DNA from: Marsupella aquatica
Lineage: Eukaryota; Plantae; Marchantiophyta
DNA length: 64,000 nucleotides
Assembly (NCBI GenBank): GCA_973895155.1
Contig: OZ316898.1
Coordinates: 15,406,330-15,470,329 of the forward strand
Reading direction: 5' to 3'
Shown here: positions 239-41,372 of the stretch, piece after piece
Layout of the letters: every line of letters begins with the position of its first letter
Numbering within the stretch: the first letter of the stretch is position 1
Translations under genes and position numbers: made by a program
The notes under the pieces: generated by a model
What the model saw: the letters and a program-made list of their open reading frames with translations, nothing else
Told to the model about the DNA's origin: nothing
Database searches by the model: none

Positions 239-278
239 ATGGTGTTTGGTGCACTTGCAAAATCGAGACCTGGTCCCC
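239..278 (+). pseudogene. 5' end of FCP1/NIF-like phosphatase gene cut off by the Gypsy insertion
   Basis: ATG at 239. Removing the element and one TSD gives an in-frame join: MVFGALAKSRPGP-LKRKLLILDLNKILWDS. Confidence 0.7.
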
Positions 279-3200
279 TGTGATGCCTAGACAGGAATCA
301 CTCGGCCGGTTAAGTGGGTAAAGCAGGAAGGCACCCTAGGAACACCTTAGTATAGGGACAAAACAAGGAAAATATAAACAATTAGGGGCAACCATGGAAC
401 CCGGGCAGAGGCCGGAGGTAAGGCTGAGGGTGAAAACCCGATTAGGGTTAGGGCGCGTTAAGCGTCGGCGGCTAGGAAGGATCAACGGGAAGAAGGACCG
501 ACAGAGGAGAGGGGTAAGGAGCGCTTGCAGGAGATGGTGGCTCATTTGCGAGCACGAACTAGGCAGACGACTACGGGAGGCCAACTACTGTCAACTGCTT
601 AGGCAAGCACTCGGGGAGAGAATAGATACCGACGATCGACCTAAGGAGGGTATGAGCAACGTCAATCAAGCGGCACATTTCTGGGGATGCTTGTTCGAAC
701 GGGCAACTGAGTACATCAAGACTTACGAGGACGAGGAGTCAGAAAGGGCAGCTCGAGAACGGCAGGAGCTCGCTCGATTGTGGGAGCTGCAGAAGACGGC
801 TTTCTTAGGAGGCGAACTCATCAAGGACGAGTTCCTGTGGACGCCTACTTCCAATCAACTCGACGATCTTCTGTTTTGCAAAGACAGCGTCGTCGGCATC
901 CAAGAGGCCATCAAGAACTGCAACGACATACACTGGGAATTAAAGGGTAGCACAGAAAGGTGGACCCAGGCAACGGTGCTAGGAGAAACCTCCACGGCAG
1001 CAGAGATGAAGAGGAAGGGGGCCGTCAACGATGAAGCCACCCCGGCAAAAAGAACGAGGTCGGCGGCACCAAAGAGGCCAGCCGAGCAGCAGAGCAGGAG
1101 GCAGGGAGAAGCCGAAGAGGAGGAGGTCGATCCCATCAAGGCCATTCCAACCAGGGATGACACCTGGAAGGGCTGGGCGGCAACCCTACCGGTGGAGGTG
1201 CAACTACATTTTGCACGGGAGGAGGATGCATGCTTTACGGCCATGCAGACCAAGAAGTACCAAGGCTTCATGGCCGGATCCGGCTTAGAGGCCTTTGTAA
1301 GATTACCATGGCTGAAGCCGGAGGTACCGGAGTCAGACCTATTAGAATTCGTGGGGTCATGGGAACCCGAGACCAATTGCACGAGGATATATGGGAAGGA
1401 TTTCTATCTTACTCCCAAGGTAATTGCCGAAGTGTTTGGCTTGCCGATAGGCAATAAGACCAAAGTTGATACCAGGAAGACCTTGCCTGACAAGGAGTTC
1501 CGGTCGTTCCCCGGGCCATCAACGAAGAATGGCTTCTTCCGGAACACCTGCACCAACCCGCACATAGGAGAGATGATCGACTTCTTGCGGTTGACCATGC
1601 ATTGTAACTTGCCGAGGGCAGAGATCGGCAAGGCACAGGTATATCTGGCAGAAAGGCCAGACCCAAGCCGGGACTACAACGGGTACCTCCTCAACCAATT
1701 GAAGAAGATCTTAAAGGAGGAGCAGTAGGTAATCGGCATGGGGAGCGTGTCGCGGCTTGGCTATCACATGCCGCTGTTGTGCCGGTATGCCAGAGGTCAG
1801 ACTTTTGCCCCGGTACTTCCCCTGCAGGTAAGGGCACCCGAGGAAGCTCCAACGCCGAGGCCGTTGGCTGAGAAGCCTCAACCACCTGTTAGTCCTACGA
1901 TCGAGCAGGTGTTTAGGCCCAGGAAGGAAGACTTGCCGATGCAGCAACCAGGCATGCAGAGTCTACTGAAACTACTGGAGAAAGAAAAGAAATCGGCATC
2001 GGCAACAACAACGGCAACGGCAACAATGTAGGACACTACTACAGAGGTAGGCCTACACCGGCTCACAAGAGAAAACCCCTTTGCTGGAGACAAGGAGAGA
2101 ATCAGGCCGGAATCCAAGCCAGGTGTTCGAATGTACGTGGGAACCTCAAGCTCCGAATCTGAGGCAGAATTGCCTGAAGCTCCTACCGACGAAGAGGAGA
2201 GGGAGAAGCCGGACGTCCAAGAGGTAGAGGAGGCAGTGGAGGACTGCAGCCATGATAATTCCGGCTATGGGTCGGACCATCACGTTCCAGGAGTAAGGAC
2301 CTGTGGCCGGTTTGTCCCCACACTTCCAAGGGTAGTGCGAGGGGACCCCAACCAGCAGATTTGCCCTGAGTCTCCCCCACCAGATGTTGCTCCCCCGAGC
2401 TTCGACGGCATAAAACAGACGGTGCAGGAATTTCAGGAGCGAATCAAGCAGGAGGAGGAGGCCGCCCTGGCTAAGGAAAAGGATTTACCAGGAGGAGATT
2501 GGCCGGAGGACATCAGGCGGCTAGCCGAAAAAGGAAGCAAACCTCTAGCCACGATTGAAGAGATCCGCAGGACGGCTTGGGAGCAGAGGCCACGATGGGC
2601 GATGCCGATCACTTCTACTTACTCCACCTACGCTAAGAATAGAGCCATGGAGTATGGTGAGATGTGTGGGGAACTTGCGCTCGGCATCTTTGGAGAGGAG
2701 TTGGAGGTAGGACCCTTTTTCCATAGGGAGCAGTTGGAGAAGCACCAATTAGAAGAAGCGGTGGCTTTAGAGAGAAGCAAGAAGGACGAGGTCATTCGAC
2801 GGCTTAGGAGGATGGAAGCCGAGATTGAAGATCTAAGGGCGGCCAAGAAAGCCCAAGATGAACTGCGGATTAAACGACATGAGCTGAACATCATGCAGGG
2901 GCAGTTGGACACCGCGCAGGCTGATAATCAGAATATCAAGGATAAACTGACTCAGACGCAGGAAGAGTTGGCCGACACGATCAAAGAGAGGGAGAAGTGG
3001 AAGCAAGAGCTGAAGAATACAGAGGAGGCCCACATAACAGCCAACAGCCGGGCCATGGCGGAGACCCAAAGAAAGGAATGGGCGTTGAAAGGGGAGCTCG
3101 AGAAAATCCGCGGAGCCCTTGAGCAGAAGGAGGTCGAGTTAGGGAAATCCTATCAAGGGATTATGGCACTGCAGCAGGAGCTTGCGTCCCTGACGGCCAG

Positions 3201-4903
3201 CTTCAAGGCCGACCTAAGGGAGAAGGACGAGATGCTCGAACAGACTTACGCCAAGATGAACCAGATGGAGTCTGTCATCATTGCAGAGCTCGACAAGGAG
3301 CTAAGAGCAACCCAGGAGGAGAGGGCTACCTTGAAGAAGGAATTGGAGGAAGCCCACAGGGAGCAGGAGGAGGCCAAAAACGAGCTGGAGGGGGCACGTA
3401 AGGACCTGGATGAAACCCAAGAGGAGTTGGAGGAAATCACGAGGAAGATGGAGGACCTACAGCGGCGGGCCGACAACCAAACAGAGTGGCTGAAGAAACA
3501 AGCCGCAGTATTTAAATGCTTAGCTGCAGCAGGTCCATCTCCCGTTGGGACAAACCAGTTACCAGGGGTGGTAATTGCCGAAGGACAAGCCGCGCCACCT
3601 GCACCAGTGCCGGAAGTAAGTGGGAAGGGGAAGGGACCAGCTGCCGAGCCACCAACGAAGAAGAAGCGGAAACCTTCAGGGTCAAGGAGTAATACGACTT
3701 CACAGGCCGTGGTGATCAAGGAGGTAGACCCAGCACCGACCCCAGACAGGGTCACGGCTAGGGATCCAACTACCCTAGGGGAAGGGGAGGCCGAAGCCGA
3801 GGGAGTGGTTGAGGCCGAAGCCGTGGGTATTGCCAAGGCCGGTGTCGAGGCTGAAGCCGAAGGTGGACCCAGTCAGGCCGATGGAGAGTTGACTCAGTCA
3901 AGGGCAGGTAATCTGTCAGAGAATGAACCTACGGCAGTGGCTGAGGAGGAAGCGTTGGGGGCGTCCATGAAGGATCCACCACCGGTGTCGTGACGGTGCA
4001 AGGGCGCCGTTCCTTTTAGGGAGGGCGGATGTGGAGGGAGGAGGCGTGAGTGGGCAGGGCGGGCGCGGATCTCCACGTTTAGGATTAGGATCAGAACCAG
4101 GAGCGGCCCTGACACTTAGCTTAGTGGGATTGCGGTCCCACTGGTAGGAGCAACACTTGTGCTCCTGCCTTGCTGTACATAGGTAGATTCGGGCAAGTAG
4201 ATTACTGTTAAGTAGATTAGGCTTACGATGCAAAGAATGGCGGATCCACTACCAGGATAAGTACCTGGGCAGCGGGGAGCTCAGTAGCAAGTTTTTAGTT
4301 TGCACCAGCCGGGCTGGGATCAAGTAGTACGAGAAGCTCTCGGTTAGTCATACAGTGACCCTTGTGTATATTCATGTTTCCTCATGCCTAAGAGCTGAAT
4401 AGAGTTGGCCTCACGGCTTAGTTCGCAGAACTTGTGTATGAAATGTACTGTTTGTATGGCAAGTGCATGGTATGACTCAGTCAGAATGAGTCATTTTGCT
4501 ATTTGTGTGTCGCATTAACTTGTGTGAAGAGTGCCCACATCAACAGAAGGAAGGAAAGTAAGCAGGGGAGTGAGAGTTGGATGTGTCGAGCTGAGAGAGG
4601 TCTTAGCGGCTTAACCAAGCCTATTGGGGATCATTCCGGCGGCGGAATCCAAACATACCTAACAAGACGGAGGGGAAGACAGGGGAAGACAGGGGAAGGC
4701 CTATATTAGGCCGGCTACGTATCTCATGACCCGATGAAGGATCTGTCCAGTATATGTGTGTAAAATGTTAATAGTAGTAGTAGAAAGTTAGCAGCGTCCC
4801 ATGCCGCTAAGCCGCGGAAACGGCCTCGCCAAGCACGAAACCTGCGGGAATCGGCTTGAGCTGGGGGGTTTCTTGGGTTTAGGGAGCCATGGGACGCACC
4901 ACA
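279..4903 (+). repeat. 5' LTR (~4.6 kb)
   Basis: Starts TGTGATGCC right after the TSD, ends GCACCACA before TTTT-TGGCGCTAG (PBS). Matches 11128-15751 with roughly 25-30 differences counted by eye. Confidence 0.96.
394..3993 (+). pseudogene. LTR-encoded protein, 5' LTR copy (ancestral ~1,199 aa; plant-transposon-protein/Transposase_32-like domain plus long coiled coil), two in-frame TAG stops
   Basis: ORFs 394-1728, 1738-2031 and 2131-3993 share one frame. TAG at 1726-1728 is CAG in the 3' LTR, and TAG at 2029-2031 is CAG in the copy at 17114-19255. Motif GLEAFVRLPW...LLEFV...IYGKDFYLTPKVIAEVFGLP and an E/K/Q-rich heptad region. Start context ACCATGG. Confidence 0.85.
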
Positions 4904-4907
4904 TTTT

Positions 4908-4924
4908 TGGCGCTAGATGGAGGG
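4908..4924 (+). promoter_or_regulatory. Primer-binding site, probably tRNA-Asn(GUU)
   Basis: TGGCGCTAGATGGAGGG lies 4 nt after the LTR. It is complementary, with one mismatch, to the plant tRNA-Asn 3' end CCCTCCTTCTAGCG-CCA as I recall it. Confidence 0.75.
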
Positions 4925-4972
4925 GGCATTTCTTAAGCCGTGAGATATGAAGTTAGAACGGAAGCGTAGGTA

Positions 4973-7966
4973 ATGACTGACCTTACGCCGAGGGAAGAAA
5001 GAGTGATTCAACGGGAGAGAGCTCGACTGCAGCAGCTCGCCGGGTGGCATGATACACAGCGACTGAGAGGGGCAGAAAGAGCTGGTAGCTCCGAAACTGG
5101 AAGTGGCGTCGAAGAAGACATACCAGAAGAAGAGTCGGTAAGGAGAAGTGAGTCTCCAACCGACATGGGGGAACCAGAGGCACGGCCAGACGAGAGGCCA
5201 GGGACCAGATTGAGCCAGCGGTCGCGCATACATTACAAGGCATTTCATGGGAGAGGAGATGAGGATCCGGACGAATGGTTGGATGATTTCGAGGGAACCG
5301 CTGCAGCAAATGGAGAATCGGCCATCAAGATGCAGATTCTTCCCGGCCTGTTCAAGGGTGAGGCTAGGCCTTGGTACAGAGCATTAGATGTGGAAGATCA
5401 AGCCATCTGGGATATCTTCAAAACACTCTTTGTTAAGGAGTTTCGACCCATTGGAACTTCAGAACTAGCAGTGCTGAAGTTGGGACAACTTCGGTTCAAG
5501 GAGAACAAATCCTTCAGGAAGTTCTTGCAACGCTTTCAGAAACTGGTAAGACGTACAAAGACCAATGCATCTGAAGGTATGCAACTTCAATGGTTGGTGA
5601 ATGCTTTGCCACAGAAGATGAGTTTTGCAATTAGGAAGGAGAACCCGGAGACTTTAGCCGAAGCAATTAAGGATATTCAATTATACATTAATGCAGATAT
5701 CACAAGCCGGAAGAAACAGCTTAAGTCTGAGAGTTCCTCATCAGAGGAGGGATCACCCCATAAGAAAAAAGATAAGAAGAAGAAACATCCCAAGAAGTCT
5801 AGAAGTGATAAGTCAAGCTCGGATAGTGGGAGTAGCAAGAGTGAGTCATCTTCTAGTTCTGAAGAAGAAAAAACTAGGAAAAGGAAGGGCAGAAGGAGAG
5901 GGAAGACGAAAGTCAAGATGGAGGCTAAGCCACCAGATAACATCGTAGCCCTTACCGAGCAACTTAAGGCTATCATTGCAGAGGTAAAACCAAAGAAGAA
6001 GGTAGTACAGGAGGATAGCTCTGTATGGTGTGCCTTATGTTATAAAACCGGACACCATAAAGATGCGTGTCCTAAGCTTAATACTAATCATGTTCGGCAT
6101 GTGGCCGAGATCAGACCATGTCAGGGAGAAGTAGAGTACTTTTTGGGAGATGCCGCTGATAGTGTTTTCGGCATCAGTGAGACTGGAGCACGAGACCTAT
6201 CCAACAGACCTGCATCTCTGTGGTCAGGGTTAAGGAACAATCCAGGAGAGATGTATCCTCGGATTATTCAGAACCCGTCAGTACCTCCTAGGCCGAATGT
6301 GCAAAGATTTGCGGCGTGCTATAATTGTGGTCAACCTGGCCATTTTGCTAGAGAATGCCCGAATGCACGCAAACAGGGTGATGGACAACCAGCTCAGCTA
6401 TGTATGGGATGCCGACAGGAAGGTCATATGCTAGGGCAATGTCCTACTTGGTTGGCAGGCCTGGCCGCAAATCATAAGCTTTTGCCGATCAAGATCTTAC
6501 CGCCAGGTACTACCCCCGGAGGAGTTCAAATCAACCACATCGAACTAGGATGGCAAGAGGATGCCAAGGCAGAGTTCGTACCATCTGATGATGAGGCCGA
6601 AGCCCTATCAACCTTCTCAGAGGAGGATTTAGATCATGATTGCTACCGGGTCTCTACTCGATCTACCAGAAGGAAGGAAAGGTGGGATGGGCTGGCCAAA
6701 AATAAAGGGAAGGTTACGGAGGAAAGGATCGACTCTTCGTCAACATCAACAGAAGGAGAAGGGAGGGCTCCGGCAATACAGGTAAGCCATGAGCCCACCA
6801 GTGAAACCAATCCTTCACAAGATAGCGACTTCAATCGAGATCATCCTAAGTTGTTCTACCCCTCTGTTACGGCTAGTGTTAAGGAACAACTAAGAGAATT
6901 AGAAACCCTGGAGAATACCGAAGCCATTGCCAAGGATGTAAAACGAGCAAAAGCATTGTTTGCTTCGGAAGACCCAACAGCTGTGGAGACTAGCGTGGCA
7001 AAACTGGCCGAATCCAAGACGGAAACACCACCAGAAGAGAAGCCGATTGTTCCCTATGACCTGGCTAAAGATGTACTAGAATCTAGAGTCTCGGCAACAG
7101 TAGGTCAACTATTGAAAAATAGCCCGTACTTCCGGAAGCAATTAAGGAAGGCTATTCTCGGCAAGCCGAGATTACCCAAGGTAGCAACCAGATCCGACCT
7201 ACTAATGATAGAAGAAGATCAAGGAGCCCCAGCATTACCATTAATGATTCAAGGAGAATTATTACTACGGGTACCCATCGATGGAGGATCAGGGGTATGT
7301 ATTATGATTGATTCAACAGCAAAAGGGTGGGGTCTAACATCGGAGATGACTGGAAGAGTGTTGAACATGGCCAATGGATATCAGGTCATTCCAACGGGAG
7401 TGTTAACCGGCATCAAGACAGAGATAGGAGGTATCTTCTTTAGCATTAACTATGTAGTAATGAAGCCGGTAAATCCTACGTCATTCCGGCTATTGATTGG
7501 TAGGCCATGGCTGTACCTAGCCGAGGTAATAGAAGATTGGGGTAAAAAGTAGTTCACTTTCGGGACCCCCTCTATCACGGTATCCTGGGACACTAAGGAT
7601 GACCGTAGGAAAAGCATAAGGGAAGTAGATGGGTACGACAGTGGACTGGAGTCAGCCGATGAAGTACGTTGGTTAGAATGCCTCACTAACCTAACCGAAG
7701 AAGGTGTCTTTGGACCAGAGGTACCCCCCAGCGGATTATGGCAAGAACCAATGGAAGGTGACTTGGAAGAAGAAGACGAAGAGGTCGAGGACTGCTTTAC
7801 AATAGAATCCACCTTTTTAGCTACAATTCCGGAGGAAGTAAAGGATGTAGACCAATTGGATGAAACGGCTAAGTGGGGAGCAGTAGCAGGGACAGTGGAT
7901 TTTCTGCAGGCGTTGTGGCAGAGCCGACGGGGTCCACAACGCCATCGATCATCGGCAAGGAATTAA
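4973..7966 (+). CDS. gag: Gag-protease ORF (capsid, three CCHC zinc knuckles, aspartic protease), one in-frame TAG at 7550-7552
   Basis: FHGRGDEDPDEWL...GEARPWY gag motif. Knuckles CALCYKTGHHKDAC, CYNCGQPGHFAREC, CMGCRQEGHMLGQC. Protease IDGGSG...LLIGRPWL. The frame continues past the TAG into ORF 7751-7966. Confidence 0.9.
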
Positions 7967-10900
7967 ATACCAAGGGATCGGCATACAAGCCGATTACGAG
8001 GGCAGAACAAATTGAGGCCCTATTAGAAGCCGAGAGAGCACAACGGCCTAACTCTCAGGAGCAAGAAGTGGATGAGATGGATAGACACGATCCAGAGCCA
8101 AGGCAGGAAGGGGAGCCGACCACTAATTCAAAACCGAATAGACCAGTAAGGGGACAATCTATGGACACCAAGGAAGGGACCGACTCGGCTAGTCCAGCCG
8201 AGATCCCAGTTTATGGAGGTATGAGATTAGAGAGACTGGAAGCCGAACTGGACCCGAATTTGAAGAAGCAGATTAATATGATCCAAGCACGGCAATATCG
8301 GAAGCTCGACTTAGGAGAGGGAAGAGAACTGAACTTAGGGAGAAACCTAGCACCTGAGCTCGAGAAAGAGATCAGTGACTTATTGATTGAATTTCAGGAT
8401 GTGTTTGCATGGAGTCACCAAGATCTAAAGGGAGTAGATCCAACACTAGGGGAACATCGAATTGATCTCATGTTAGGAGCCAAATCATTTCGACAACCAA
8501 TTCGAAGGATGAACCCGAAGTATTCCCTGCTGGTCAAAACAGAAATCGACAAACTAGTGGAAGCTGGATTCATCACTCCAGTCCTGCATTCAGACTGGGT
8601 GTCTCCAATTGTGATAGTTCCCAAGAAAGCTGGACCCGATGGTAAACCCAAGATCCGGGTTTGTCAGGATTACAGGAAGCTGAATGAAGCAACATTAAAA
8701 GACCATTTTCCTTTACCGTTTACTGATATGGTACTAGACATGGTAGCCAGTCATGAACTATATTCATTCATGGATGGATACTCTGGTTATAACCAAATCA
8801 GGATTCGGCAGGAAGACCAAATCAAGACGGCCTTCATCACGGAATGGGGGATCTATGTCTTCAATCGTATGCCGTTTGGACTCTGCAACGCACCAGCTAT
8901 GTTCCAACGATTAATGGTGAACATTTTTCATGATTACTTGAGAAAGTTCATGGAAATCTTCATTGATGACTTTGCAGTATTCGGGAAGGCATCGAAACAT
9001 GCTAAATACCTCAGGAAAACCTTCATGAGATGTAGGGAGGTGGGTCTCAAGTTACACCCAGATAAATGTTTTTTTGCAGTAACCGAGGGGGTGCTACTAG
9101 GTCACAAGGTATCAAGGAAGGGCATTGAGATTGACAAAGGTAAGCTAGCAGTATGGCTAGATATCATGCAACCTAAGAACATAAAGGATGTAAGATCCTT
9201 CTTGGGATGCATTGGTTACTATCGCCGGTTCATCAAGGATTTTGCCAAGCTGGCTTTACCATTAACCAATATGCTCAAGGCAGGAGCAGACTTCGAACCC
9301 ACACCCGAACGAGTCACAGCGGTGGTAGAATTGAAGCAGATGTTAGTAGAGGCCCCAGTCATGATAGCACCGGACTGGAACAAAGATTTTCATGTTTTTG
9401 TAGATGTCTCGGGCTTCTGTATTGGCTCAGTACTAAGTCAGTTGGATGAGAAAGGAAGGGACCATCCCATATACTTCGCAAGCCGTCAGCTTGCCGATGC
9501 CGAACGGAACTACTCTACCACGGAAAGAGAAGCATTAGGAGTCATTTATTCTTGTAAAAAGTTTAGGCATTATTTACTAGGGTACAAGGTAATCTTTCAT
9601 ACTGATCATGAAAGTTTAAAGTACCTAGTCAATAAGCCGGACCTTACAGGCAGAGTAGCAAGATGGATTTTGCTATTACAGGAGTTTGACTATGAGCTGA
9701 GGATCAAGCCGGGAAAGTTACATGCCAATGCCGACTTCTTTTCAAGGATCACAGGTAAACCTGCCACGGATTGCATCGATGATCGATTCCCCGACGAGGA
9801 GCTATTCGTTGTGGAAATAGCTGGTACATGGTACCCTGAGATTTTACAATTTCTCAGCACTTCCAGATTACAGCCAGGATTAAGCCGAGAGCAAGCCGCA
9901 GTCTTTGTGCGGAAGGTCAGACAGTATCAGTGCATTAAAGGCATACTGCACAAGCATGGAATCAACGACACGATTCAAAGATGTTTGGAAAAGATAGAGG
10001 TAAAACGAGTCCTACGGGCCATGCATGGAGAGGAGGCCGGAGGACATTTTGCCCCAGTAACCACGTCTAAGAAGATATTAAATGTCGGTTACTGGTGGCC
10101 CACCTTGCACAAAGATGTCTATCAGTTTATCAAACAATGCGATCCTTGTCAACGAGCGGGAGGACCAAGGGCGTCCACCAGGCATCCACTGCACCCTATT
10201 CTACCTCTGGCACCATTCGAGAAGTGGGGTATTGATTACATTGGACCTCTGAAACCACTGACCCACCCTCGACGGAACAAGTACATAATCCTGGCTACGG
10301 ATTATGCAACTAAATGGGTAGAGGCCAGACCAACAACGAAGGATGATGCAATTACTACGGCTAGATTCATGTATGAGCAGATCTTCACCAGGTATGGAGC
10401 ACCCCTAGAATTAGTTAGTGATAGAGGAACCCATTTTTTGAATGATATAATTAGTCGTTTAAATGAGCAGTATTTAGTTAAACATAGGCCTACTACTCCC
10501 TACCATCCAAAGGCAAACGGGTTGACAGAACGAGCAAACGGAATCATAGGAAAGATATTGAACAAGACAGTAGCTCAGAACAAACTCGATTGGGATGATA
10601 AATTGTTTGCTGCTGTTTTTGCTTACAATCTTGCCTATAAATCCACTACCGGTCATACACCCTTCTTCTTAACCTTTGAACAAGAAGCCCTGGTACCCAT
10701 GCAACTTGAGATACCGACATTTCAAGTTACAATTGAGGAAAGAGCCTCAGCGGAGGAGAGCCTAAAGGAGCGAGAATATAGGTTAGAAGCTTTAGAGGAA
10801 GCGAGAATGATTTCAGCCGAGAGAGTAGAATATAGACAGAATATCATGAAGCAGCAGTATGATAAAAGGTTAAAAGTAGTTAGTATTCATACCGGTGATC

Positions 10901-11139
10901 TTGTGCTACTTTATGACAGTAGGTATAGTAGGTTTCCAGGAAAGCTTTACACTCGCTGGTTAGGACCCTTTAGAGTAACCATGATGTTCCCCAATGGCTC
11001 CGTACAATTGGCCAACATTACGGGAGAGGTATATCCAGTTCGCATCCATTATGACCGCCTCAAGAAATACTATATGGACGAAGATAAAGTTGTTCGCAAG
11101 GACGCTTCACAATTAAGTGGGGAGCTATGTGATGCCTAG
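7873..11139 (+). CDS. pol: Pol: reverse transcriptase, RNase H, integrase (open frame)
   Basis: RT: RVCQDYRKLN, DGYSGYNQI, MPFGLCNAP, FIDD. RH: DVS...EREAL...TDH...ADFFSR. INT: HHCC, GIDYIGP, SDRGTHF, NGLTER, WLGPF. The stop codon lies inside the 3' LTR. Confidence 0.97.
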   Translation: MGSSSRDSGFSAGVVAEPTGSTTPSIIGKELNTKGSAYKPITRAEQIEALLEAERAQRPNSQEQEVDEMDRHDPEPRQEGEPTTNSKPNRPVRGQSMDTKEGTDSASPAEIPVYGGMRLERLEAELDPNLKKQINMIQARQYRKLDLGEGRELNLGRNLAPELEKEISDLLIEFQDVFAWSHQDLKGVDPTLGEHRIDLMLGAKSFRQPIRRMNPKYSLLVKTEIDKLVEAGFITPVLHSDWVSPIVIVPKKAGPDGKPKIRVCQDYRKLNEATLKDHFPLPFTDMVLDMVASHELYSFMDGYSGYNQIRIRQEDQIKTAFITEWGIYVFNRMPFGLCNAPAMFQRLMVNIFHDYLRKFMEIFIDDFAVFGKASKHAKYLRKTFMRCREVGLKLHPDKCFFAVTEGVLLGHKVSRKGIEIDKGKLAVWLDIMQPKNIKDVRSFLGCIGYYRRFIKDFAKLALPLTNMLKAGADFEPTPERVTAVVELKQMLVEAPVMIAPDWNKDFHVFVDVSGFCIGSVLSQLDEKGRDHPIYFASRQLADAERNYSTTEREALGVIYSCKKFRHYLLGYKVIFHTDHESLKYLVNKPDLTGRVARWILLLQEFDYELRIKPGKLHANADFFSRITGKPATDCIDDRFPDEELFVVEIAGTWYPEILQFLSTSRLQPGLSREQAAVFVRKVRQYQCIKGILHKHGINDTIQRCLEKIEVKRVLRAMHGEEAGGHFAPVTTSKKILNVGYWWPTLHKDVYQFIKQCDPCQRAGGPRASTRHPLHPILPLAPFEKWGIDYIGPLKPLTHPRRNKYIILATDYATKWVEARPTTKDDAITTARFMYEQIFTRYGAPLELVSDRGTHFLNDIISRLNEQYLVKHRPTTPYHPKANGLTERANGIIGKILNKTVAQNKLDWDDKLFAAVFAYNLAYKSTTGHTPFFLTFEQEALVPMQLEIPTFQVTIEERASAEESLKEREYRLEALEEARMISAERVEYRQNIMKQQYDKRLKVVSIHTGDLVLLYDSRYSRFPGKLYTRWLGPFRVTMMFPNGSVQLANITGEVYPVRIHYDRLKKYYMDEDKVVRKDASQLSGELCDA
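7897..7956 (+). promoter_or_regulatory. Putative programmed -1 ribosomal frameshift signal
   Basis: G GAT TTT (7897-7903) is in the gag-PR frame within the overlap with the -1 pol frame. After a 5-nt spacer comes a perfect 10-bp stem, GGCGTTGTGG (7909-7918) / CCACAACGCC (7934-7943). Loop GCCGA can pair with TCGGC (7952-7956). Confidence 0.75.
11115..11127 (+). promoter_or_regulatory. Polypurine tract
   Basis: AAGTGGGGAG(CTA) directly before the TG of the 3' LTR, inside the last pol codons. Confidence 0.8.
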
Positions 11140-14100
11140 ACAGGAATCACTCGGCCGGTTAAGTGGGTAAAGCAGGGAGGCACCCTAGGAACACCTTAGT
11201 ATAGGGACAAAACAAGGAAAATATAAACAATTAGGGGCAACCATGGAACCCGGGCAGAGGCCGGAGGTAAGGCTGAGGGTGAAAACCCGATTAGGGTTAG
11301 GGCGCGTTAAGCGTCGGCGGCTAGGAAGGATCAACGGGAAGAAGGACCGGCAGAGGAGAGGGGTAAGGAGCGCTTGCAGGAGATGGTGGCTCATTTGCGA
11401 GCACGAACTAGGCACACGACCACGGGAGGCCAACTACTGTCAGCTGCTTAGGCAAGCACTCGGGGAGAGAATAGATACCGACGATCGACCTAAGGAGGGT
11501 ATGAGCAACGTCAATCAAGCGGCACATTTTTGGGGATGCCTGTTCGAACGGGCAACTGAGTACATCAAGACTTACGAGGACGAGGAGTCAGAAAGGGCAG
11601 CTCGAGAATGGCAGGAGCTCGCTCGATTGTGGGAGCTGCAGAAGACGGCTTTCTTAGGAGGCGAACTCATCAAGGACGAGTTCCTGTGGACGCCTACTTC
11701 CAATCAACTCGACGATCTTCTGTTTTGCAAAGACAGCGTCGTCGGCATCCGAGAGGCCATCAAGAACTGCAACGACATACACTGGGAATTAAAGGGTAGC
11801 ACGGAAAGGTGGACCCAGGCAACGGTGCTAGGAGAAACCTCCACGGCAGCAGAGATGAAGAGGAAGGGGGCCGTCAACGATGAAGCCACCCCGGCAAAAA
11901 GAACGAGGTCGGCGGCACCAAAGAGGCCAGCCGAGCAGCAGAGCAGGAGGCAGGGAGAAGCCGAAGAGGAGGAGGTCGATCCCATCAAGGCCATTCCAAC
12001 CAGGGATGACACCTGGAAGGGCTGGGCGGCAACCCTACCGGTGGAGGTGCAACTACATTTTGCACGGGAGGAGGATGCATGCTTTACGGCCATGCAGACC
12101 AAGAAGTACCAAGGCTTCATGGCCGGATCCGGCTTAGAGGCCTTTGTAAGATTACCATGGCTGAAGCCGGAGGTACCGGAGTCAGACCTATTAGAATTCG
12201 TGGGGTCATGGGAACCCGAGACCAATTGCACGAGGATATATGGGAAGGATTTCTATCTTACTCCCAAGGTAATTGCCGAAGTGTTTGGCTTGCCGATAGG
12301 CAATAAGACCAAAGTTGATACCAGGAAGACCTTGCCTGACAAGGAGTTCCGGTCGTTCCCCGGGCCATCAACGAAGAATGGCTTCTTCCGGAACACCTGC
12401 ACCAACCCGCACATAGGAGAGATGATCGACTTCTTGCGGGTGACCATGCATTGTAACTTGCCGAGGGCAGAGATCGGCAAGGCACAGGTATATCTGGCAG
12501 AAAGGCCAGACCCAAGCCGGGACTACAACGGGTACCTCCTCAACCAATTGAAGAAGATCTTAAAGGAGGAGCAGCAGGTAATCGGCATGGGGAGCGTGTC
12601 GCGGCTTGGCTATCACATGCCGCTGTTGTGCCGGTATGCCAGAGGTCAGACTTTTGCCCCGGTACTTCCCCTGCAGGTAAGGGCACCCGAGGAAGCTCCA
12701 ACGCCGAGGCCGTTGGCTGAGAAGCCTCAACCACCTATTAGTCCTACGATCGAGCAGGTGTTTAGGCCCAGGAAGGAAGACTTGCCGATGCAGCAACCAG
12801 GCATGCAGAGTCTGCTGAAACTACTGGAGAAAGAAAAGAAATCGGCATCGGCAACAACAACGGCAACGGCAACAATGTAGGACACTACTACAGAGGTAGG
12901 CCTACACCGGCTCACAAGAGAAAACCCCTTTGCTGGAGACAAGGAGAGAATCAGGCCGGAATCCAAGCCAGGTGTTCGAATGTACGTGGGAACCTCAAGC
13001 TCCGAATCTGAGGCAGAATTGCCTGAAGCTCCTACCGACGAAGAGGAGAGGGAGAAGCCGGACGTCCAAGAGGTAGAGGAGGCAGTGGAGGACTGCAGCC
13101 ATGATAATTCCGGCTATGGGTCGGACCATCACGTTCCAGGAGTAAGGACCTGTGGCCGGTTTGTCCCCACACTTCCAAGGGTAGTGCGAGGGGACCCCAA
13201 CCAGCAAAGTAGCCCTGAGTCTCCCCCACCAGATGTTGCTCCCCCGAGCTTCGACGGCATAAAACAGACGGTGCAGGAATTTCAGGAGCGAATCAAGCAG
13301 GAGGAGGAGGCCGCCCTGGCTAAGGAAAAGGATTTACCACGAGGAGATTGGCCGGAGGACATCAGGCGGCTAGCCGAAAAAGGAAGCAAACCTCTAGCCA
13401 CGATTGAAGAGATCCGCAGGACGGCTTGGGAGCAGAGGCCACGATGGGCGATGCCGATCACTTCTACTTACTCCACCTACGCTAAGAATAGAGCCATGGA
13501 GTATGGTGAGATGTGTGGGGAACTTGCGCTCGGCATCTTTGGAGAGGAGTTGGAGGTAGGACCCTTTTTCCATAGGGAGCAGTTGGAGAAGCACCAATTA
13601 GAAGAAGCGGTGGCTTTAGAGAGAAGCAAGAAGGACGAGGTCATTCGACGGCTTAGGAGGATGGAAGCCGAGATTGAAGATCTAAGGGCGGCCAAGAAAG
13701 CCCAAGATGAACTGCGGATTAAACGACATGAGCTGAACATCATGCAGGGGCAGTTGGACACCGCGCAGGCTGATAATCAGAATATCAAGGATAAACTGAC
13801 TCAGACGCAGGAAGAGTTGGCCGACACGATCAAAGAGAGGGAGAAGTGGAAGCAAGAGCTGAAGAATACAGAGGAGGCCCACATAACAGCCAACAGCCGG
13901 GCCATGGCGGAGACCCAAAGAAAAGAATGGGCGTTGAAAGGGGAGCTCGAGAAAATCCGCGGAGCCCTTGAGCAGAAGGAGGTCGAGTTAGGGAAATCCT
14001 ATCAAGGGATTATGGCACTGCAGCAGGAGCTTGCGTCCCTGACGGCCAGCTTCAAGGCCGACCTAAGGGAGAAGGACGAGATGCTCGAACAGACTTACGC

Positions 14101-15751
14101 CAAGATGAACCAGATGGAGTCTGTCATCATTGCAGAGCTCGACAAGGAGCTAAGAGCAACCCAGGAGGAGAGGGCTACCTTGAAGAAGGAATTGGAAGAA
14201 GCCCACAGGGAGCAGGAGGAGGCCAAAAACGAGCTGGAGGGGGCACGTAAGGACCTGGATGAAACCCAAGAGGAGTTGGAGGAAATCACGAGGAAGATGG
14301 AGAACCTACAGCGGCGGGCCGACAACCAAACAGAGTGGCTGAAGAAACAAGCCGCAGTATTTAAATGCTTAGCTGCAGCAGGTCCATCTCCCGTTGGGAC
14401 AAACCAGTTACCAGGGGTGGTAATTGCCGAAGGAAAGCCGCGCCACCTGCACCAGTGCCGGAAGTAAGTGGGAAGGGGAAGGGACCAGCTGCCGAGCCAC
14501 CAACGAAGAAGAAGCGGAAACCTTCAGGGTCAAGGAGTAATACGACTTCACAGGCCGTGGTGATCAAGGAGGTAGACCCAGCACCGACCCCAGACAGGGT
14601 CACGGCTAGGGATCCAACTACCCTAGGGGAAGGGGAGGCCGAAGCCGAGGGAGTGGCTGAGGCCGAAGCCGTGGGTATTGCCGAGGCCGGTGTCGAGGCT
14701 GAAGCCGAAGGTGGACCCAGTCAGGCCGATGGAGAGTTGACTCAGTCAAGGGCAGGTAATCTGTCAGAGAATGAACCTACGGCAGTGGCTGAGGAGGAAG
14801 CGTTGGGGGCGTCCATTAAGGATCCACCACCGGTGTCGTGACGGTGCAAGGGCGTCGTTCCTTTTAGGGAGGGCGGACGTGGAGGGAGGAGGCGTGAGTG
14901 GGCAGGGCGGGCGCGGATCTCCACGTTTAGGATTAGGATCAGAACCAGGAGCGGCCCTGACACTTAGCTTAGTGGGATTGCGGTCCCACTGGTAGGAGCA
15001 ACACTTGTGCTCCTGCCTTGCTGTACATAGGTAGATTCGGGCAAGTAGATTACTGTTAAGTAGATTAGGCTTACGATGCAAAGAATGGCGGATCCACTAC
15101 CAGGATAAGTACCTGGGCAGCGGGGAGCTCAGTAGCAAGTTTTTAGTTTGCACCAGCCGGGCTGGGATCAAGTAGTACGAGAAGCTCTCGGTTAGTCATA
15201 CAGTGACCCTTGTGTATATTCATGTTTCCTCATGCCTAAGAGCTGAATAGAGTTGGCCTCACGGCTTAGTTCGCAGAACTTGTGTATGAAATGTACTGTT
15301 TGTATGGCAAGTGCATGGTATGACTCAGTCAGAATGAGTCATTTTGCTATTTGTGTGTCGCATTAACTTGTGTGAAGAGTGCCCACATCAACAGAAGGAA
15401 GGAAAGTAAGCAGGGGAGTGAGAGTTGGATGTGTCGAGCTGAGAGAGGTCTTAGCGGCTTAACCAAGCCTATTGGGGATCATTCCGGCGGCGGAATCCAA
15501 ACATACCTAACAAGACGGAGGGGAAGACAGGGGAAGACAGGGGAAGGCCTATATTAGGCCGGCTACGTATCTCATGACCCGATGAAGGATCTGTCCAGTA
15601 TATGTGTGTAAAATGTTAATAGTAGTAGTAGAAAGTTAGCAGCGTCCCATGCCGCTAAGCCGCGGAAACGGCCTCGCCAAGCACGAAACCTGCGGGAATC
15701 GGCTTGAGCTGGGGGGTTTCTTGGGTTTAGGGAGCCATGGGACGCACCACA
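11128..15751 (+). repeat. 3' LTR (~4.6 kb)
   Basis: TGTGATGCC...GCACCACA, followed by TSD TCCCC. Confidence 0.96.
11243..14841 (+). pseudogene. LTR-encoded protein, 3' LTR copy (TAG at 12878-12880; 1-nt deletion near 14434)
   Basis: ORFs 11243-12880, 12980-14467 and 14365-14841 reproduce the 5' copy. GGACAAGCC versus GGAAAGCC shows the frameshifting deletion. Confidence 0.85.
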
Positions 15752-15756
15752 TCCCC

Positions 15757-16775
15757 TCAAGCGGAAGTTGCTGATTTTGGACCTTAATAAAATACTTTGG
15801 GATTCTATTGAATTCCAAAGCAAGGGCACATCCAGGAATATTGTCACCTCAAGTGGAGTGCATTGGGATAGATCAAATGGAACTAGTCGCATGTATACAG
15901 AGAGGCCACGGCTCCATGAGTTTCTAAAGTTGGTTTTTGACCGGTTTGACGTTGCAATTTGGACATGTGCTGGGATGCCGCGAACAGTGAAAATGTTGAA
16001 CATGATGTTCACAATTGAGGAGCGGTTGAAACTGAAGTTTGTATTCACACAGGTGGAAGCCTTTGACACAGGCATTCAAAGGCGTGACGTTACAAATGGA
16101 AAGGCAAATGTGCTATTGAAGGATTTTCGGGTGGTATGGAGTGCATTTGGAAATCTATATGATGAAACCAACACACTCCTTGTGGATGACTCCCCCTTGA
16201 AGGCATTTGCCAACCCAGACATGACCGCACTATTTCCAGTGCCCTACACGCATGCCAATCGTGGAGACAATTTTCTTCTAACAATTCTTTGGCCATGTCT
16301 TGAGAAACTGTCACATGCAAGTGACATTCGTTGTTATCTTCTCCTAAACTCTCCAAAGTGGTCTCTATTGCACATTAAGAGAGACAAGGCAAAAAATGAG
16401 ATTACTTATGATCAACTTAGTAAGAGATGTGCAGCAAAAATTTGGAAGTCACAGTATAGGCATAGTGTGCTGGACCTCAATAGCAATGAGATTCCTTGGG
16501 CTGTGAAGCACCGTATATGTAGCTTACGTCCTGAGGTGGAACTTGACAATGCACTTGTCACCTCACTTGCTAGATCATTTGTAGGACGGGAATATTCAGG
16601 TCTGTATAGAGAAAATCCCAGACACTTTTTGCGGGAGATTATAGCAGTTAGGAACAACACCACCAAATTTCATCTCCCTGAAGATAAAGGGAGTTGCAAC
16701 CGTGACATTAGGGTAGATAGTAAAGGAGACAAAGGCACGTGCTCAAATAAATATTGTAAGGAGCACTTTGTTTAG
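15757..16775 (+). pseudogene. FCP1/NIF (NLI-interacting factor) homology HAD-phosphatase-like gene, main body, insertionally disrupted
   Basis: KLLILDLNKIL, RPRLHEFL...FDVAIWT, LLKDFRVVW and NTLLVDDSPLKAFANP are FCP1-homology motifs. The DxD motif reads DLN. Confidence 0.8.
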
Positions 16776-17150: not shown

Positions 17151-19255
17151 AATGAATAGGCTGATAAATCCTTTTCCCTGGCCAGGGCTGCCTTCTCTTC
17201 CTGCCTGATTCGCTCCTGAAATTCTTGCGCCATCTGTTTTATGCCGTCGAAGCTCGGGGGAGCAACATCTGGCGGGGGAGACTCAGGGCTACTCTGCTGG
17301 TTGGGGTCCCCTCGTACTACCCTTGGAAGTGTGGGGACAAACCGGCCACAGGTCCTTACTCCTGGAACGTGATGGTCCGACCCATAGCCGGAGTTATCAT
17401 GGCTGAAGTCCTCCACTGCCTCCTCTACTTCTTGGACGTCCGGCTTCTCCCTCTCCTCTTCGTCGGTAGGAGCTTCAGGCAATTCTGCCTCAGATTCAGA
17501 GCTTGAGACTCCCACGTACATTCGAACACCTGGCTTGGATTCCGGCCTGATTCTCTCCTTGTCTCCAGCAAAGGGGTTTTCTCTTGTGAGCCGGTGTAGG
17601 CCTACCTCTGGAGTAGTGTCCTGCATTGTTGCCGTTGCCGTTGTCATTGCCAATCTCTTTTCTTTCTCCAGTAGTTTCAGCAGACTCTGCATGCCTGGTT
17701 GCTGCATCGGCAAGTCCTCCTTCCTGGGCCTAAACACCTGCTCGATCGTAGGGCTAACAGGTGGTTGAGGCTTCTCTGCTACCGGCCTCGGTGCTGGAGC
17801 TTCCTCGGGTGCCCTTACCTGTAGGGGAAGTACTGGGGCAAAAGTCTGACCTCTGGCATACCGGCACAACAGCGGCATGTGATAGCCAAGCCGCGACACG
17901 CTCCCCATGCCGATTACCTGCTGCTCCTCCTTTAAGATCTTCTTCAATTGGTTGAGGAGGTACCCGTTGTAGTCCCGGCTTGGGTCTGGCCTCTCTGCCA
18001 GATAGACCTGTGCCTTGCCGATCTCTGCCCTCGGCAAGTTACAATGCATGGTCACCCGCAAGAAGTCGATCATCTCTCCTATGTGCGGGTTGGTGCAGGT
18101 GTTCTGGAAGAAGCCATTCTTCGTTGATGGCCCGGGGAACGACCGGAACTCCTTGTCAGGCAAGGTCTTCCTGGTATCAACTTTGGTCTTATTGCCTATC
18201 GGCAAGCCAAACACTTCGGCAATCACTTTGGGAGTAAGATAGAAATCCTTCCCATATATCCTCGTGCAATTGGTCTCGGGTTCCCATGACCCCACGAATT
18301 CTAATAGGTCTGACTCCGGTACCTCCGGCTTCAGCCATGGTAATCTTACAAAGGCCTCTAAGCCGGATCCGGCCATGAAGCCTTGGTACTTCTTGGTCTG
18401 CATGGCCGTAAAGCATGCATCCTCCTCCCGTGCAAAATGTAGTTGCACCTCCACCGGTAGGGTTGCCGCCCAGCCCTTCCAGGTGTCATCCCTGGTTGGA
18501 ATGGCCTTGATGGGATCAACCTCCTCCTCTTCGACTTCTCCCTGCCTCCTGCTCTGCTGCTCGGCTGGCTTCTTTGGTGCCGCCGACCTCGTTCTTTTTG
18601 CCGGGGTGGCTTCATCGTTGACGGCTCCCTTCCTCTTCATCTCTGCTGCCGTGGAGGTTTTTCCTGGAACCGTTGCCTGGGTCCACCTTTCCGTGCTACC
18701 CTTCAATTCCCAGTGTATGTCGTTGCAGTTCTTGATGGCCTCTCGAATGCCGATGACGCTGTCTTTGCAAAACAGAAGATCGTCGAGCTGATTGGAAGTA
18801 GGAGTCCACAAGAACTCGTCCTTGATGAGTTCGCCTCCTAAGAAAGCCGTCGTCTGCAGCTCCCACAATCGAGCGAGCTCCTGCCATTCTCGAGTTGCCC
18901 TTTCTGATTCCTCGTCCTCGTTAGTCTTGATGTACTCAGTTGCCCATTCGAACAGGCATCCCCAGAAATGTGCCGCTTGATTGACGTTGCTCATACCCTC
19001 CTTAGATCGCTCGTTGGTATCTACTCTCTCCCCGAGTGCTTGCCTAAGCAACTGACAGTAGTTGGCCTCCCATAGTCGTCTGCCTAGTTCGTGCTCGCAA
19101 ATGAGCCACCATCTCCTACAAGCGCTCCTTACCCGTTCGGCCTTCCGGTCCTTCCTCCCGTTGATCCTTCCTAGCCGCCGACGCTTAACGCGCCCTAACC
19201 CTAATCGAGTTTTCACCCCCAGCGTCCTTACCTCCGGCCTCGGCCCGGGTTCCAT
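17114..19255 (-). CDS. LTR-encoded protein, uninterrupted N-terminal ~700 aa, 3'-truncated
   Basis: The 713-aa ORF reads through both positions that are stops in the intact element's LTRs. Its indels relative to those copies preserve frame. Confidence 0.85.
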   Translation of the reverse strand: MEPGPRPEVRTLGVKTRLGLGRVKRRRLGRINGRKDRKAERVRSACRRWWLICEHELGRRLWEANYCQLLRQALGERVDTNERSKEGMSNVNQAAHFWGCLFEWATEYIKTNEDEESERATREWQELARLWELQTTAFLGGELIKDEFLWTPTSNQLDDLLFCKDSVIGIREAIKNCNDIHWELKGSTERWTQATVPGKTSTAAEMKRKGAVNDEATPAKRTRSAAPKKPAEQQSRRQGEVEEEEVDPIKAIPTRDDTWKGWAATLPVEVQLHFAREEDACFTAMQTKKYQGFMAGSGLEAFVRLPWLKPEVPESDLLEFVGSWEPETNCTRIYGKDFYLTPKVIAEVFGLPIGNKTKVDTRKTLPDKEFRSFPGPSTKNGFFQNTCTNPHIGEMIDFLRVTMHCNLPRAEIGKAQVYLAERPDPSRDYNGYLLNQLKKILKEEQQVIGMGSVSRLGYHMPLLCRYARGQTFAPVLPLQVRAPEEAPAPRPVAEKPQPPVSPTIEQVFRPRKEDLPMQQPGMQSLLKLLEKEKRLAMTTATATMQDTTPEVGLHRLTRENPFAGDKERIRPESKPGVRMYVGVSSSESEAELPEAPTDEEEREKPDVQEVEEAVEDFSHDNSGYGSDHHVPGVRTCGRFVPTLPRVVRGDPNQQSSPESPPPDVAPPSFDGIKQMAQEFQERIRQEEKAALAREKDLSAYSLKVYFLLFTNQS

Positions 19256-19370
19256 GGTCGCCCCTAATTGTTTATATTTTCCTTGTTTTGTCCCTATACT
19301 AAGGTATTTCTAGGGTGCCTTCCTGCTCTACCCCCTTAACTGGCCGAGTGATTCCTGTCTAGGCATCACA
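17162..19370 (-). mobile_element. Truncated LTR (5' ~2.2 kb) of the same Gypsy family, inserted into the first exon of the CACTA gene
   Basis: Reverse complement of TGTGATGCCTAGACAGG ends at 19370. Homology stops near 17162. Confidence 0.93.
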
Positions 19371-19372
19371 CT

Positions 19373-20558
19373 CCTCTAGGCCCCATTCCATGTTGGTGTG
19401 TGCGATGTAAGGGAATGGTGGTTTGTCAAGCTTGGGAGTGTATTGAGAATTATGGGCAACACCAACCTGATTTACCAGGACATTCAGCTCGCCAGGTATG
19501 CACCCCATACTCTCACCCCACACATTTTGAAGGAAACATAATTTGCCACTTACAATCATGGCCACTATCATCATATATTTATTAATTTTGGATTTTTTTT
19601 GAATGAATAGGTGCCCCGTAGGCCCCCTCCTCCATTGATCTCCAAAGAGCTATGGCTAGACACATTCTTGGCTAGTTCAAGGCGGATGCTTGCATCAACA
19701 TCTACACCCCCTCCTCCTGCCCCGCACCCCAATGGTGAGGGTGGGAGTATACCTGTAGCAAGGGTGGAGGACATTGAGCAAGGTGACCTGGAGGTACCTC
19801 CATCTAGGGTTTTACGCACCCACCCACGCTGGAGACATTACAAACCATTGGGCACTCGTGAGTCTCAAGACCCAAACTTGGTAGGTCCGCCTATGATGAA
19901 GCCAGGTGAGGGTTATGTGGTAGTGGAGGGTAGGTTGGGATTGTCATATCTCACTGGAAAGGCGTTGTCTCTTGTGAAGGACTTCTCATCTGAGATATTC
20001 AAAATCCCTCAAGGCATACCCACTAATGCCCCTATAGAGATATGGGGCCGTCATTGGATAGTGCAGTCATCTTCCCTTGGTGTTGATGTAGGATTTGGGT
20101 TATTTGCTTTGGAGGACATTGTGGTCCATCCAAAGCCATGGCGAAGAGGTTATGATGGGGAACACTTATTTCCTTACATTGGCCCTATATACATTGCCAA
20201 GAATTGGAACATTATTTTGCGGCAACAACCATCATGGGGAGTGTATGCATTGCAAATGGATTCCAATCCGGATGAGGTCCTCAAGAGGCCTTGGCATTGT
20301 AGGATGATTGATGGTGATCCTGTGCAATGTGATAACATCGCTGGGTATATCAATAGTACCAAAGGGAGAGGACGAGGACTTCAACCAAATGTAGAGTGGG
20401 TTCAGATTTTTGGGGCACCGCCACCACCTTACTATGTCAAGCATATGGATGACCATGTTATGACTATAGCCATTAGGACTATTAGGGCTGGTGAGGAACT
20501 CTTTTGTGACTATGATTGGAACGCGCCTAAGATGGCCATACGGTGTTGTCCTTCATAG
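19373..20558 (+). CDS. SET-domain (putative lysine methyltransferase) gene: exon ~19373-19495 (CxCxxC zinc-ribbon-like) plus exon 19611-20558; start lost to the LTR insertion
   Basis: SET motifs GFGLFALEDI, PYIGPIY, NIAGYINST, PNVEW, IRTIRAGEELFCDY. Donor CAG|GTATGC at 19495/6 and acceptor TAG|GTG at 19610/1, both phase 0. Upstream exon reads PIPCWCVRCKG...ENYGQH. Confidence 0.85.
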
Positions 20559-20749
20559 CACATACAAACATGTGTATATGTTCACTTTTATAAAAATATT
20601 ACTTGAGTCATTCTCTAATTGGTTTCAAGAGCTATGGATGGAGTCTTTTGACTCATTCATATATGGATGTCTCAATTGTTGGTTGAGAGACCTGGACTTA
20701 TATCATTCTCATTGTTTTCTTTTGTGTATGATAGAATGTATTTGTTCAG

Positions 20750-27509: not shown

Positions 27510-29020
27510 TTCCTTATGACACCGGCATCTCTTTCGACCCCCCCAAGGTGCTCTGGTCTATAAGAGAAGTATGGGTGCAAAAGTTTGACTCTGGGCATGC
27601 CGGCACAACAACAGCATGTGATAAGCAAGCCCGGTAGACACTCCCTTGGCCTATCACCTGTTGTTCCTCCTTCAAGATCTTCTTCAATTGGGTGAGGAGG
27701 TACCTGTTGTAGTCTCGACTTGGGTTTGGTCTTTGGCAAGGTAGACAAGTTTGCACCTTGCCAATCTTTGGCCTTGGCAAATTGTAATGCAAGGTCATCC
27801 GCAGGAAGTCAATGATCTCTCCTATATGCAGGTTGGTGCAAGTGTTCTAGAGGAAACCATTCTTTGTTGATGGTCCTAGGAATAATCTAAACTTCTTATT
27901 TGGCAGGTTCTTCTAGGAGTCCACCTTGGTCTTATCGTCCATATGCAATCCAAATACTACTTCAATCACCTTGGGAGTGAGATGGAATACCCTCCCATGC
28001 ACCTTGGTTGCATCCAAATTGTGGTCCCATGATCCCACAAATTCCAACAGGTCTGTATCCGACACCTCTTGCTTCATCCAGGTAACCTCACAAAGGTCTC
28101 CAAGCCATCCTGGCCATGCAGCCTTGGTATTTTAGGGATTGCATGGCTGTAAGATAGACATCCTTGTCTCATGCAAAATATAACTGCACCTCCTTTCGTA
28201 GAACCTCCGCTAGCCCCTCCATGTGTCATCCTTCGTGGGGATGGCATTGACTAGGTCAACCTCTAGTTCTTTGGCCTCCTCCTGCCTCTTTCTCCCCTGT
28301 TTGGCAGTCTTTCTTGGTGATGCTGACCTCATTCTTTTTGCCAGGGTGGCCTTGTCAGTGATCGCTCACTTCCTCGTCATGGTGGCCGCTCTTGATGACT
28401 CCAAGCACAATCGCTTTTGTCCACGCCGCTGAGCACCCTTTCAGGTCCCAATGTTTGTTGTTGCCATGGTTGAGGCCTCACAAATGCCCAGGATCCTGTC
28501 CTGGCTTGTGAAACAACAAGTTGTCAAGTTGATCAGTAGAGGGCATCCATAGGAACTCATCCACTAATGAATGTAGTCCTCTAGAGCTCCCACAACCTAG
28601 CAAGCTCTTGTCTCTTTGACTGCTCTCTTTGACTGCTTGTCCTCGTAAGTTCCAATGAACTCAGTTGCCCGTTCAAACAGGCACCCCCAAAAATGTGCAA
28701 CTTGGTTGATGTTGCCTATCCCCACTTAGTGTCAATGCTTGGTGTCTGCTTCCGCCCAATGTGCTTGCCTAAGCTGTTGACATTGTGTTGGCCTCTCTTG
28801 TTCCTCTGGCGATTGTCATTTGCAAATGAGCCGCCGATCCTAGTGAAGAGTCCTAACCTCCCCCCACACTACTTTCGCTTGAATGCCTGTCAATCACTTA
28901 CTATCAACGGTGCTTAGCATGCCCTAACCCTAATTGTACCTCCTTGTTGCCGTTATGCCCTCACTTTTGGCCTTGGCTCAGATTCCATGGTTACACTTAA
29001 TTGTTTAAGTTTTTTCCCCT
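27510..29020 (-). pseudogene. Old, decayed copy of the LTR-encoded gene (N-terminal ~500 codons)
   Basis: Fragments such as HYNLPRPKIGKVQ and RPNPSRDYNRYLLTQLKKILKEEQQVIG, plus the start context AAACAATTAAGTGTAACCATGGAA, match LTR positions ~370-1800. Confidence 0.88.
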
Positions 29021-39907: not shown

Positions 39908-41372
39908 TGTGGTACCTCCCATGGCTCCCTAAACCCAAGAAACCCCCTGCACAAGCCGATTCCCGTAGGTTTCGCTCTCGGCGAGGCCGGTTCCGCGACT
40001 TATCGACATGGGATGCTGCTAATTCTTCTACTAACATTTTACACACATATACTGGACAGATCCTTCATCGGGTCATGAGATAAGTAGCCGGCCTATTCTA
40101 TGCCTTCCCTTGTTTTCCTCTCCTGGTCTCCCTTTAGGTATGTTTGGATTCCGCCGTCGGAATGATCCCCAATTGGCTTGGGTTAGCCGCTAAGACCTCT
40201 CTCAACTCAACACATCCAACTCTTACTACCTTGCTTACTTCCCTTCTCTCTTGGTTGATGTGGGCCAATCTTCAAACAAGTTAATGCGACACACAAATAG
40301 CAAAATAACTCCTTCTGATTGAGTTATACCATGCACTTGCCATACAAACAGTACTTCTCATACACAAGATCTGTGAACTAAGCCGTGAGGCCAACTCTAT
40401 TCAGCTCTTAGGCATGAGGAACATGAATATACACAAGGGTCACTGTATAACTAACCGAGAGCTTCTTTTAATATTTGATCCCAGCCTTGCTGGTGCACTA
40501 AAAACTTGCTAAAGAAGAAGGCCCTCAACTCCCCGCTGCCCAGGTACTTATCCTGACAGTGGATCCGCCTAAGTCCTTGTAGCGTAAGCCTAATCTATCC
40601 TAACTATAATCTACTTATGTACAACAAGGCAAGAGCACCAGTGTTGCTCTTACCAATGGATCCACAATTCCACTAATCTAAGTGTCAGGGCCGCCTCTTG
40701 GTCCTGATCCTAATTCTAAACTTGGAGATTTGTGCTCGCCCTGCCCACTCACGCCTCCTCCCTCCACGTCCGCCCTCCCTAAAAGGAGCGACCCTCCACC
40801 ACTGTCATGGTAGCGGTGGCTGATCCTCAATGGACGCCCCCAATGCTTCCTCCGCAGCCACTGCCGTAGGTCCGTCCTCTCACAGATTACCTGCCCCAGA
40901 CCGAGTCAACTCTCCCACGGCCTGACCGGGTCCACCCTCGGCTTCGGCCTCAGCTTTGGCTACGGCCTCCTTGGCCTACTCTTGTGATAGATCCGCTACC
41001 ACGGCTTCATCAATGATTTTCCCGGCCTCGGCCTTGCCATCCCCGCCTTCTAGGACAACCAAATCCTCTGCCGTGACCTTGCCTGATGCCGGTGCCGTGT
41101 TCTCCTCTTTGGTCATGGTGGCCTGAGAAGCCGCGTTGCTCCCTGACCCGGAAGGTTTCCGCTTCTTCTTCTTTCCTTGTTTGGCAGCTGGTCCCTTCCC
41201 CTTGCCGATTACCTCTGGCATTGGTGCAAGTGCCGCGGCTTGTCCCTTGGTCAGTACTACCCCTGGCAACCTTGTTGCCACAATTGGTGATTGAACTGAT
41301 GAGGCCAAACACTTAAATACTACGGCTTGTTTCTTCAGCCGCTCCGTTGGGTTGTCGGCCCGTCTTTGGATA
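39908..41372 (-). mobile_element. Diverged 3' part (~1.45 kb) of the giant LTR, including the end of the LTR gene and the CA terminus
   Basis: Reverse-complement homology to ~3460-4903. Peptide RRADNPTERLKKQAVVFKCL...GKGKGPAA...KKKRKPSGS. The LTR end ...ACCACA is at 39908. Confidence 0.92.

Follow-up and report, generated by a model that had tools for sequence, protein, structure and literature searches.

A reading frame of 1,199 codons inside the long terminal repeats of a Marsupella aquatica Ty3/Gypsy retrotransposon, with a predicted VANC21-like fold

Why should a retrotransposon carry a large gene within its long terminal repeat (LTR)? The question is raised by a 64,000-nucleotide stretch of Marsupella aquatica (Marchantiophyta; contig OZ316898.1, positions 15,406,330 to 15,470,329, assembly GCA_973895155.1), hereafter the window, in which positions 279-15751 form a complete Ty3/Gypsy element with a copy of one open reading frame (ORF) in each LTR. 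This gene is real, family-wide and selected. Its core domain has a predicted fold matching, at 7% identity, the core fold of VANC21 (PDB 9LNK; DUF1985), the solved relative, which is a sequence-specific DNA-binding anti-silencer. We give a probability of roughly 0.55 to the reading that the LTR gene works like VANC, though by defining features it is neither VANC nor an Athila envelope-like (env) protein. Given this predicted fold and the presence of the gene in both LTRs, the element likely copies its own anti-silencing defence twice per insertion.

A selected gene within the LTR

The original prediction proposed one long ORF in both LTRs, beginning at position 394. The frame withstood comparison with shuffled sequence: in the 5' LTR it has 2 stops, whereas the two alternative frames have 59 and 44, and none of 1,000 shuffles had fewer than 28. 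However, neither of the element's two copies is intact. The stop at codon 445 is confined to the 5' LTR and that at codon 546 is common to both, while the 3' copy has a 1-nt frameshift near position 14434 besides its stop. As about 99% of the public-run contig depth at the shared stop (12878) shows another base, this stop is private to the present insertion.

Selection was assessed as dN/dS (Nei-Gojobori) between the element's ORF and two further copies in the window, B and C, and between its C-terminal part and copy D (Table 1). The ratio was 0.26 against B and 0.14 against C for codons 91-250, and 0.09 and 0.18, respectively, for codons 251-480 (p from 2e-3 to 1e-19 over codons 91-480); the C-terminal part gave 0.68 against D (p 0.013). 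Codons 91-480 are under purifying selection, with values far below the dN/dS near 1 that was to have spoken against a working gene. Codons 1-90 showed no coding constraint (0.78 against both B and C; p 0.59 and 0.34), so that, although the frame 394-3993 is confirmed, its actual start codon could be located downstream of 394. The context of this first ATG is nevertheless kept in copy C.

Copy B is an independent insertion with the same LTR start TG after a different flank, and its frame is open for 731 codons, spanning both stop positions. Among the 15 public runs listed, 13 contain part of the LTR, 6 contain at least half of its words, and none is on record as RNA. Depth ratios were taken from two of the four runs mapped (X1 and X2, either of which may be the window's own source), X3 and X6 being excluded because other families swamp their reverse transcriptase (RT) bins. 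Median contig depth of the ORF part of the LTR was 4.0x (X1) and 3.6x (X2) that of the internal region, and 1.01x (X1) and 0.79x (X2) that of the last kilobase of the LTR, where summed contig depth is not equivalent to copy number. A short-LTR family would place the ORF at internal depth and is thus disfavoured, while values exceeding 2 point to an abundance of solo LTRs. Copy B, these ratios and the target site duplication (TSD) all favour a family-wide long LTR: the long LTR with its ORF is the family form, not an artefact.

No short-LTR sister of the family was found, and no related loci were found in viral contigs or metagenome contigs. Protein searches restricted to proteins above 1,249 and 1,303 aa gave no relatives, and another protein search gave 2. 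The protein alignment kept 17 of 21 sequences (P0007 and P0020 were dropped because their matches were short or repetitive, P0005 and P0019 because they were short and apparently frameshifted).

Origin of the long LTR and expression of its gene

The T-tract, purine tract and TG directly after the ORF are likely a former polypurine tract (PPT) and the start of an 874-bp LTR. The TG reads CG in the 3' LTR and in copy D, and the tract is identical in D (80% overall). The gene would formerly have stood between pol and this 874-bp LTR, the usual Athila position, until plus-strand priming moved upstream to a purine tract in the end of pol. The accessory gene would thereby have become U3, to be copied to both ends and to remain in solo LTRs. 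The PPT now in use is part of the sequence coding for integrase, and pol stops 12 nt into the 3' LTR (11137-11139), leaving no spacer. Contigs of run X3 agree over the pol end, the PPT and the first LTR bases but part beyond them (at 11132 and 11134, 17 contigs), which indicates that the upstream PPT is not new. The tract at 4018-4029 may have been kept as a second primer site, a role ascribed to central PPTs of EVADE and Ty1 in PMC7197481. Such a PPT shift would be a visible route by which giant LTRs arise, and a 3.6-kb gene in an LTR breaks the rule that coding capacity is lost when a solo LTR forms. Genes that lie in U3 and are duplicated at each end are known from retroviruses (sag of mouse mammary tumour virus, nef of human immunodeficiency virus); their proteins are unrelated to that of the LTR ORF and about a quarter of its length or less.

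Expression could well proceed, at slightly less than even odds, by splicing of the leader upstream ORF (uORF) onto a 3' LTR acceptor in the same frame. This route would use the 3' LTR only and would bypass the unconstrained codons, in kind like the spliced ORF2 mRNA of Athila. The acceptor (602; 11451 in the 3' LTR) is the richest in pyrimidines among the 18 listed candidates beyond the LTR edge, is kept in copy C, and its phase equals that of the leader donor; the predicted joint was absent from the 15 of 222 joints listed in the run contigs. A second route, a promoter within the first 330 bp of the LTR, is somewhat less probable, and both may operate. Here the TATAAA at 373 and the conserved blocks would drive a separate transcript beginning just past the first ATG. 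One such block is telobox-like, resembling the consensus AAACCCTAR (10.1101/2024.09.27.615353). Solo LTRs are active genes only if this own-promoter route holds.

There is an almost balanced case for regarding the LTR location as a by-product of the PPT shift, with the gene functioning only through a spliced mRNA of the 3' LTR and the 5' and solo copies as silent passengers. The in-frame donor-acceptor pair, the retention of the acceptor block in copy C and the lack of constraint on codons 1-90 all point this way. By contrast, the non-coding blocks that are conserved ahead of the acceptor (the TATA-like and ATG context, and telobox-like 441-454) fit a promoter, but they could also serve the main LTR promoter. 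A by-product origin is compatible with VANC-like function and would lower only the meaning of the location.

Two TATA-like sequences (4702-4708 and 4752-4757) are candidates for the main LTR promoter, the second alone being kept in copy D. The overlap of the uORF stop with the gag ATG could couple termination to gag re-initiation.

Predicted fold and function

Besides the VANC21-like fold, the nearest language-model neighbours of the protein were Transposase_32 (PF20167) and ATHILA (PF03078) at 0.88-0.90, which we treat as a lead. Together these predictions lend structural support to the earlier suggestion of an anti-silencing nuclear protein. Identity with Transposase_32 or PMD, also raised at that point, was not borne out: hidden Markov models (HMMs) for ATHILA, Transposase_32, PMD (PF10536) and DUF1985 matched none of 20 proteins at E<=0.5, leaving the language-model likeness to Transposase_32. 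Foldseek gave no match under E 2.5 against PDB, nor did a repeat look; a profile search of PDB sequences reached E 0.83 at best, and an ESM comparison of residues 68-205 gave no usable match. The best fold match in BFVD was an unnamed 805-aa entry, A0A890CAY5 (E 0.018, probability 0.80). The protein motifs and the helical region of ~270 aa were present as foreseen, including the run KRK...KRTR, which we take to be similar to a nuclear localisation signal (NLS), and no transmembrane segment was found (19-aa hydropathy peaks at 0.91).

If the gene works like VANC, its product would oligomerise via the coiled coil, bind a short motif in non-coding LTR parts of the family and, like VANC and MAIN/MAIL, counteract DNA methylation or H3K27me3. 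The likeness to VANC21 of Arabidopsis VANDAL21 lies in the predicted core fold and in being an accessory transposable element (TE) protein with a coiled coil. However, VANDAL is a Mutator-like DNA transposon whereas the carrier here is a Gypsy retrotransposon, and the short VANC target motif is multiplied in non-coding parts, whereas no motif arrays were found here: no k-mer exceeded shuffles. TTAG, a motif picked after the fact, occurs at 14-15/kb against 3-4/kb elsewhere. VANC has been described as dicot-specific, unlike the present host, and a non-flowering host would put the fold on retrotransposons far earlier. PRC2 is reported to repress TEs in such plants too.

It is rather doubtful, yet worth weighing, that a protein of the same fold group has another job, either post-transcriptional (binding or export of genomic RNA) or in tethering the integration complex to chromatin, like the unexplained accessory proteins of Athila and Ogre. 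For Athila ORF1 and Transposase_32 proteins no function is demonstrated in PMC7264820 or PMC11728184, and the missing motif array would agree with such a role. Against it, the only solved relative is an anti-silencer, and PMD-C proteins encoded by hosts exert their effect on chromatin, at DNA motifs (10.1101/2024.09.27.615353). What the extra ORFs of plant retrotransposons do has long been an open question, which a VANC-like fold makes directly testable.

An extension of the VANC-like reading is improbable as a whole. It would make the LTR an anti-silencing module comprising its own promoter, the VANC-fold gene and the binding sites of its protein, from which 5' and solo LTRs de-silence the family in trans, and would unite VANC, PMD, Athila ORF1 and Transposase_32 as one anti-silencing superfamily on retrotransposons of early land plants.

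Other systems offer partial parallels. PMD proteins (Ogre PMD-A; host MAIN/MAIL1/MAIL2) are tied to the same fold through VANC, but PF10536 had no match here and the Ogre ORF is in the internal region, upstream of gag. TRP28 ORFs of Retand are alike in their domain, Smc-like coiled coil and proposed DNA binding; they differ in being antisense, internal, accompanied by LTRs of 315-1,194 bp and confined to flowering plants. Retrosat2, RIRE3 and RIRE8 share LTRs over 3 kb and an extra ORF, but their ORF0 is described upstream of gag-pol, separate from the LTR. With Athila and Transposase_32 ORFs the gene shares a sense ORF after pol, a non-chromovirus Gypsy carrier without a second RNase H and a predicted splice. 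These ORFs, however, sit between pol and the LTR, and the present protein lacks a transmembrane segment and falls below HMM detection; position and transmembrane segment both set it apart from the Athila env-like ORF.

That the product is an envelope-like or movement protein, a proposal made for Athila ORF2, is very improbable: the sense ORF downstream of pol and the possible splice would suit one, but the absence of a hydrophobic segment, the NLS-like motifs and the VANC-like fold do not. Least probable, and already largely refuted by the TSD, the flanks in one NIF-domain frame, copy B and the depth ratios, is a local duplication or assembly artefact in a short-LTR family. In its favour, depth at the LTR tip in X2 is 1.26x that of the ORF part, which would allow for some forms that are short or diverged.

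Anatomy of the element and neighbouring features

Gag, the order RT-RNase H (RH)-integrase (INT), TG..CA LTRs, TSD, primer-binding site (PBS) and PPT identify a Ty3/Gypsy LTR retrotransposon (Table 1), and its predicted borders were upheld by LTR comparison and flanking signals. The LTRs are 26 substitutions and 1 indel apart (0.56%). A Pfam scan of pol at E<=1 found neither a chromodomain after integrase nor a second RNase H, which places the element outside the chromoviruses and outside Tat (with additional RNase H), respectively.

Table 1. Coordinates of features in the window
Feature	Position	Strand	Remarks
TSD (TCCCC, 5 bp)	left 274..278, right 15752..15756
5' LTR	279..4903	+	4,625 bp, TG...CA
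TATAAA	373..378	+	candidate internal promoter of LTR gene; preserved in copy B, with 2 differences in C
LTR ORF	394..3993	+	1,199 codons; codons 445 and 546 are stops in 5' LTR copy
Telobox-like block	441..454	+	8/9 to consensus on other strand; identical in C (72%) while flanks diverge
Predicted splice acceptor	595..610	+	AG 601-602 (3' LTR 11450-11451); block kept in B and C
KRK...KRTR	1006..1059	+	bipartite, NLS-like
Globular domain	1147..1815	+	codons ~252-474; predicted VANC21-like fold
Two long helices	2716..3528	+	~270 aa, predicted coiled coil
KKKRK	3658..3672	+	NLS-like
T-tract, purine tract (4018-4029), TG	4014..4031	+	internal, directly after ORF stop
PBS	4908..4917	+	PBS-like TGGCGCTAGA
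Leader uORF	4947..4975	+	8 codons; stop overlaps gag ATG at 4973
Predicted splice donor	4969/4970		AG|GTAATG, inside leader uORF
gag, putative protease	4973..7552	+	capsid, zinc knuckle (Pfam); protease presumed from its motif, no Pfam match
pol	7873..11139	+	RT, RNase H, integrase (Pfam)
PPT in use	11115..11124	+	purine tract
3' LTR	11128..15751	+	4,624 bp, TG...CA; ORF copy 11243-14841 (one stop, one frameshift)
Copy B	17161..19370	-	truncated insertion, 95.5%
Copy C	27566..28835	-	decayed ORF fragment, 72%
Copy D	39908..41362	-	ORF end and LTR 3' part, 80%; same CA end, no PBS following

Gag-protease is separated from pol (7550-7966) by a stop, 137 open codons and a change of frame, the stop base being variable among family contigs. 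The insertion site is a seemingly intronless NIF/CTD-phosphatase-like ORF (flanks 239-278 and 15757-16775; PF03031, E 7e-15). With the TSD counted once, the frame that opens at ATG 239 in the left flank continues into the right flank, which independently confirms the element borders.

Elsewhere, an ORF with a SET domain (PF00856, E 7e-8) is closely followed downstream by pieces of CACTA-like transposase (DUF4218, E 2e-18; Transposase_21, weak), and this region (19611-23432) may be a DNA transposon that includes a SET domain. Positions 47246-49138 hold exons of an ARM/HEAT-repeat host gene.
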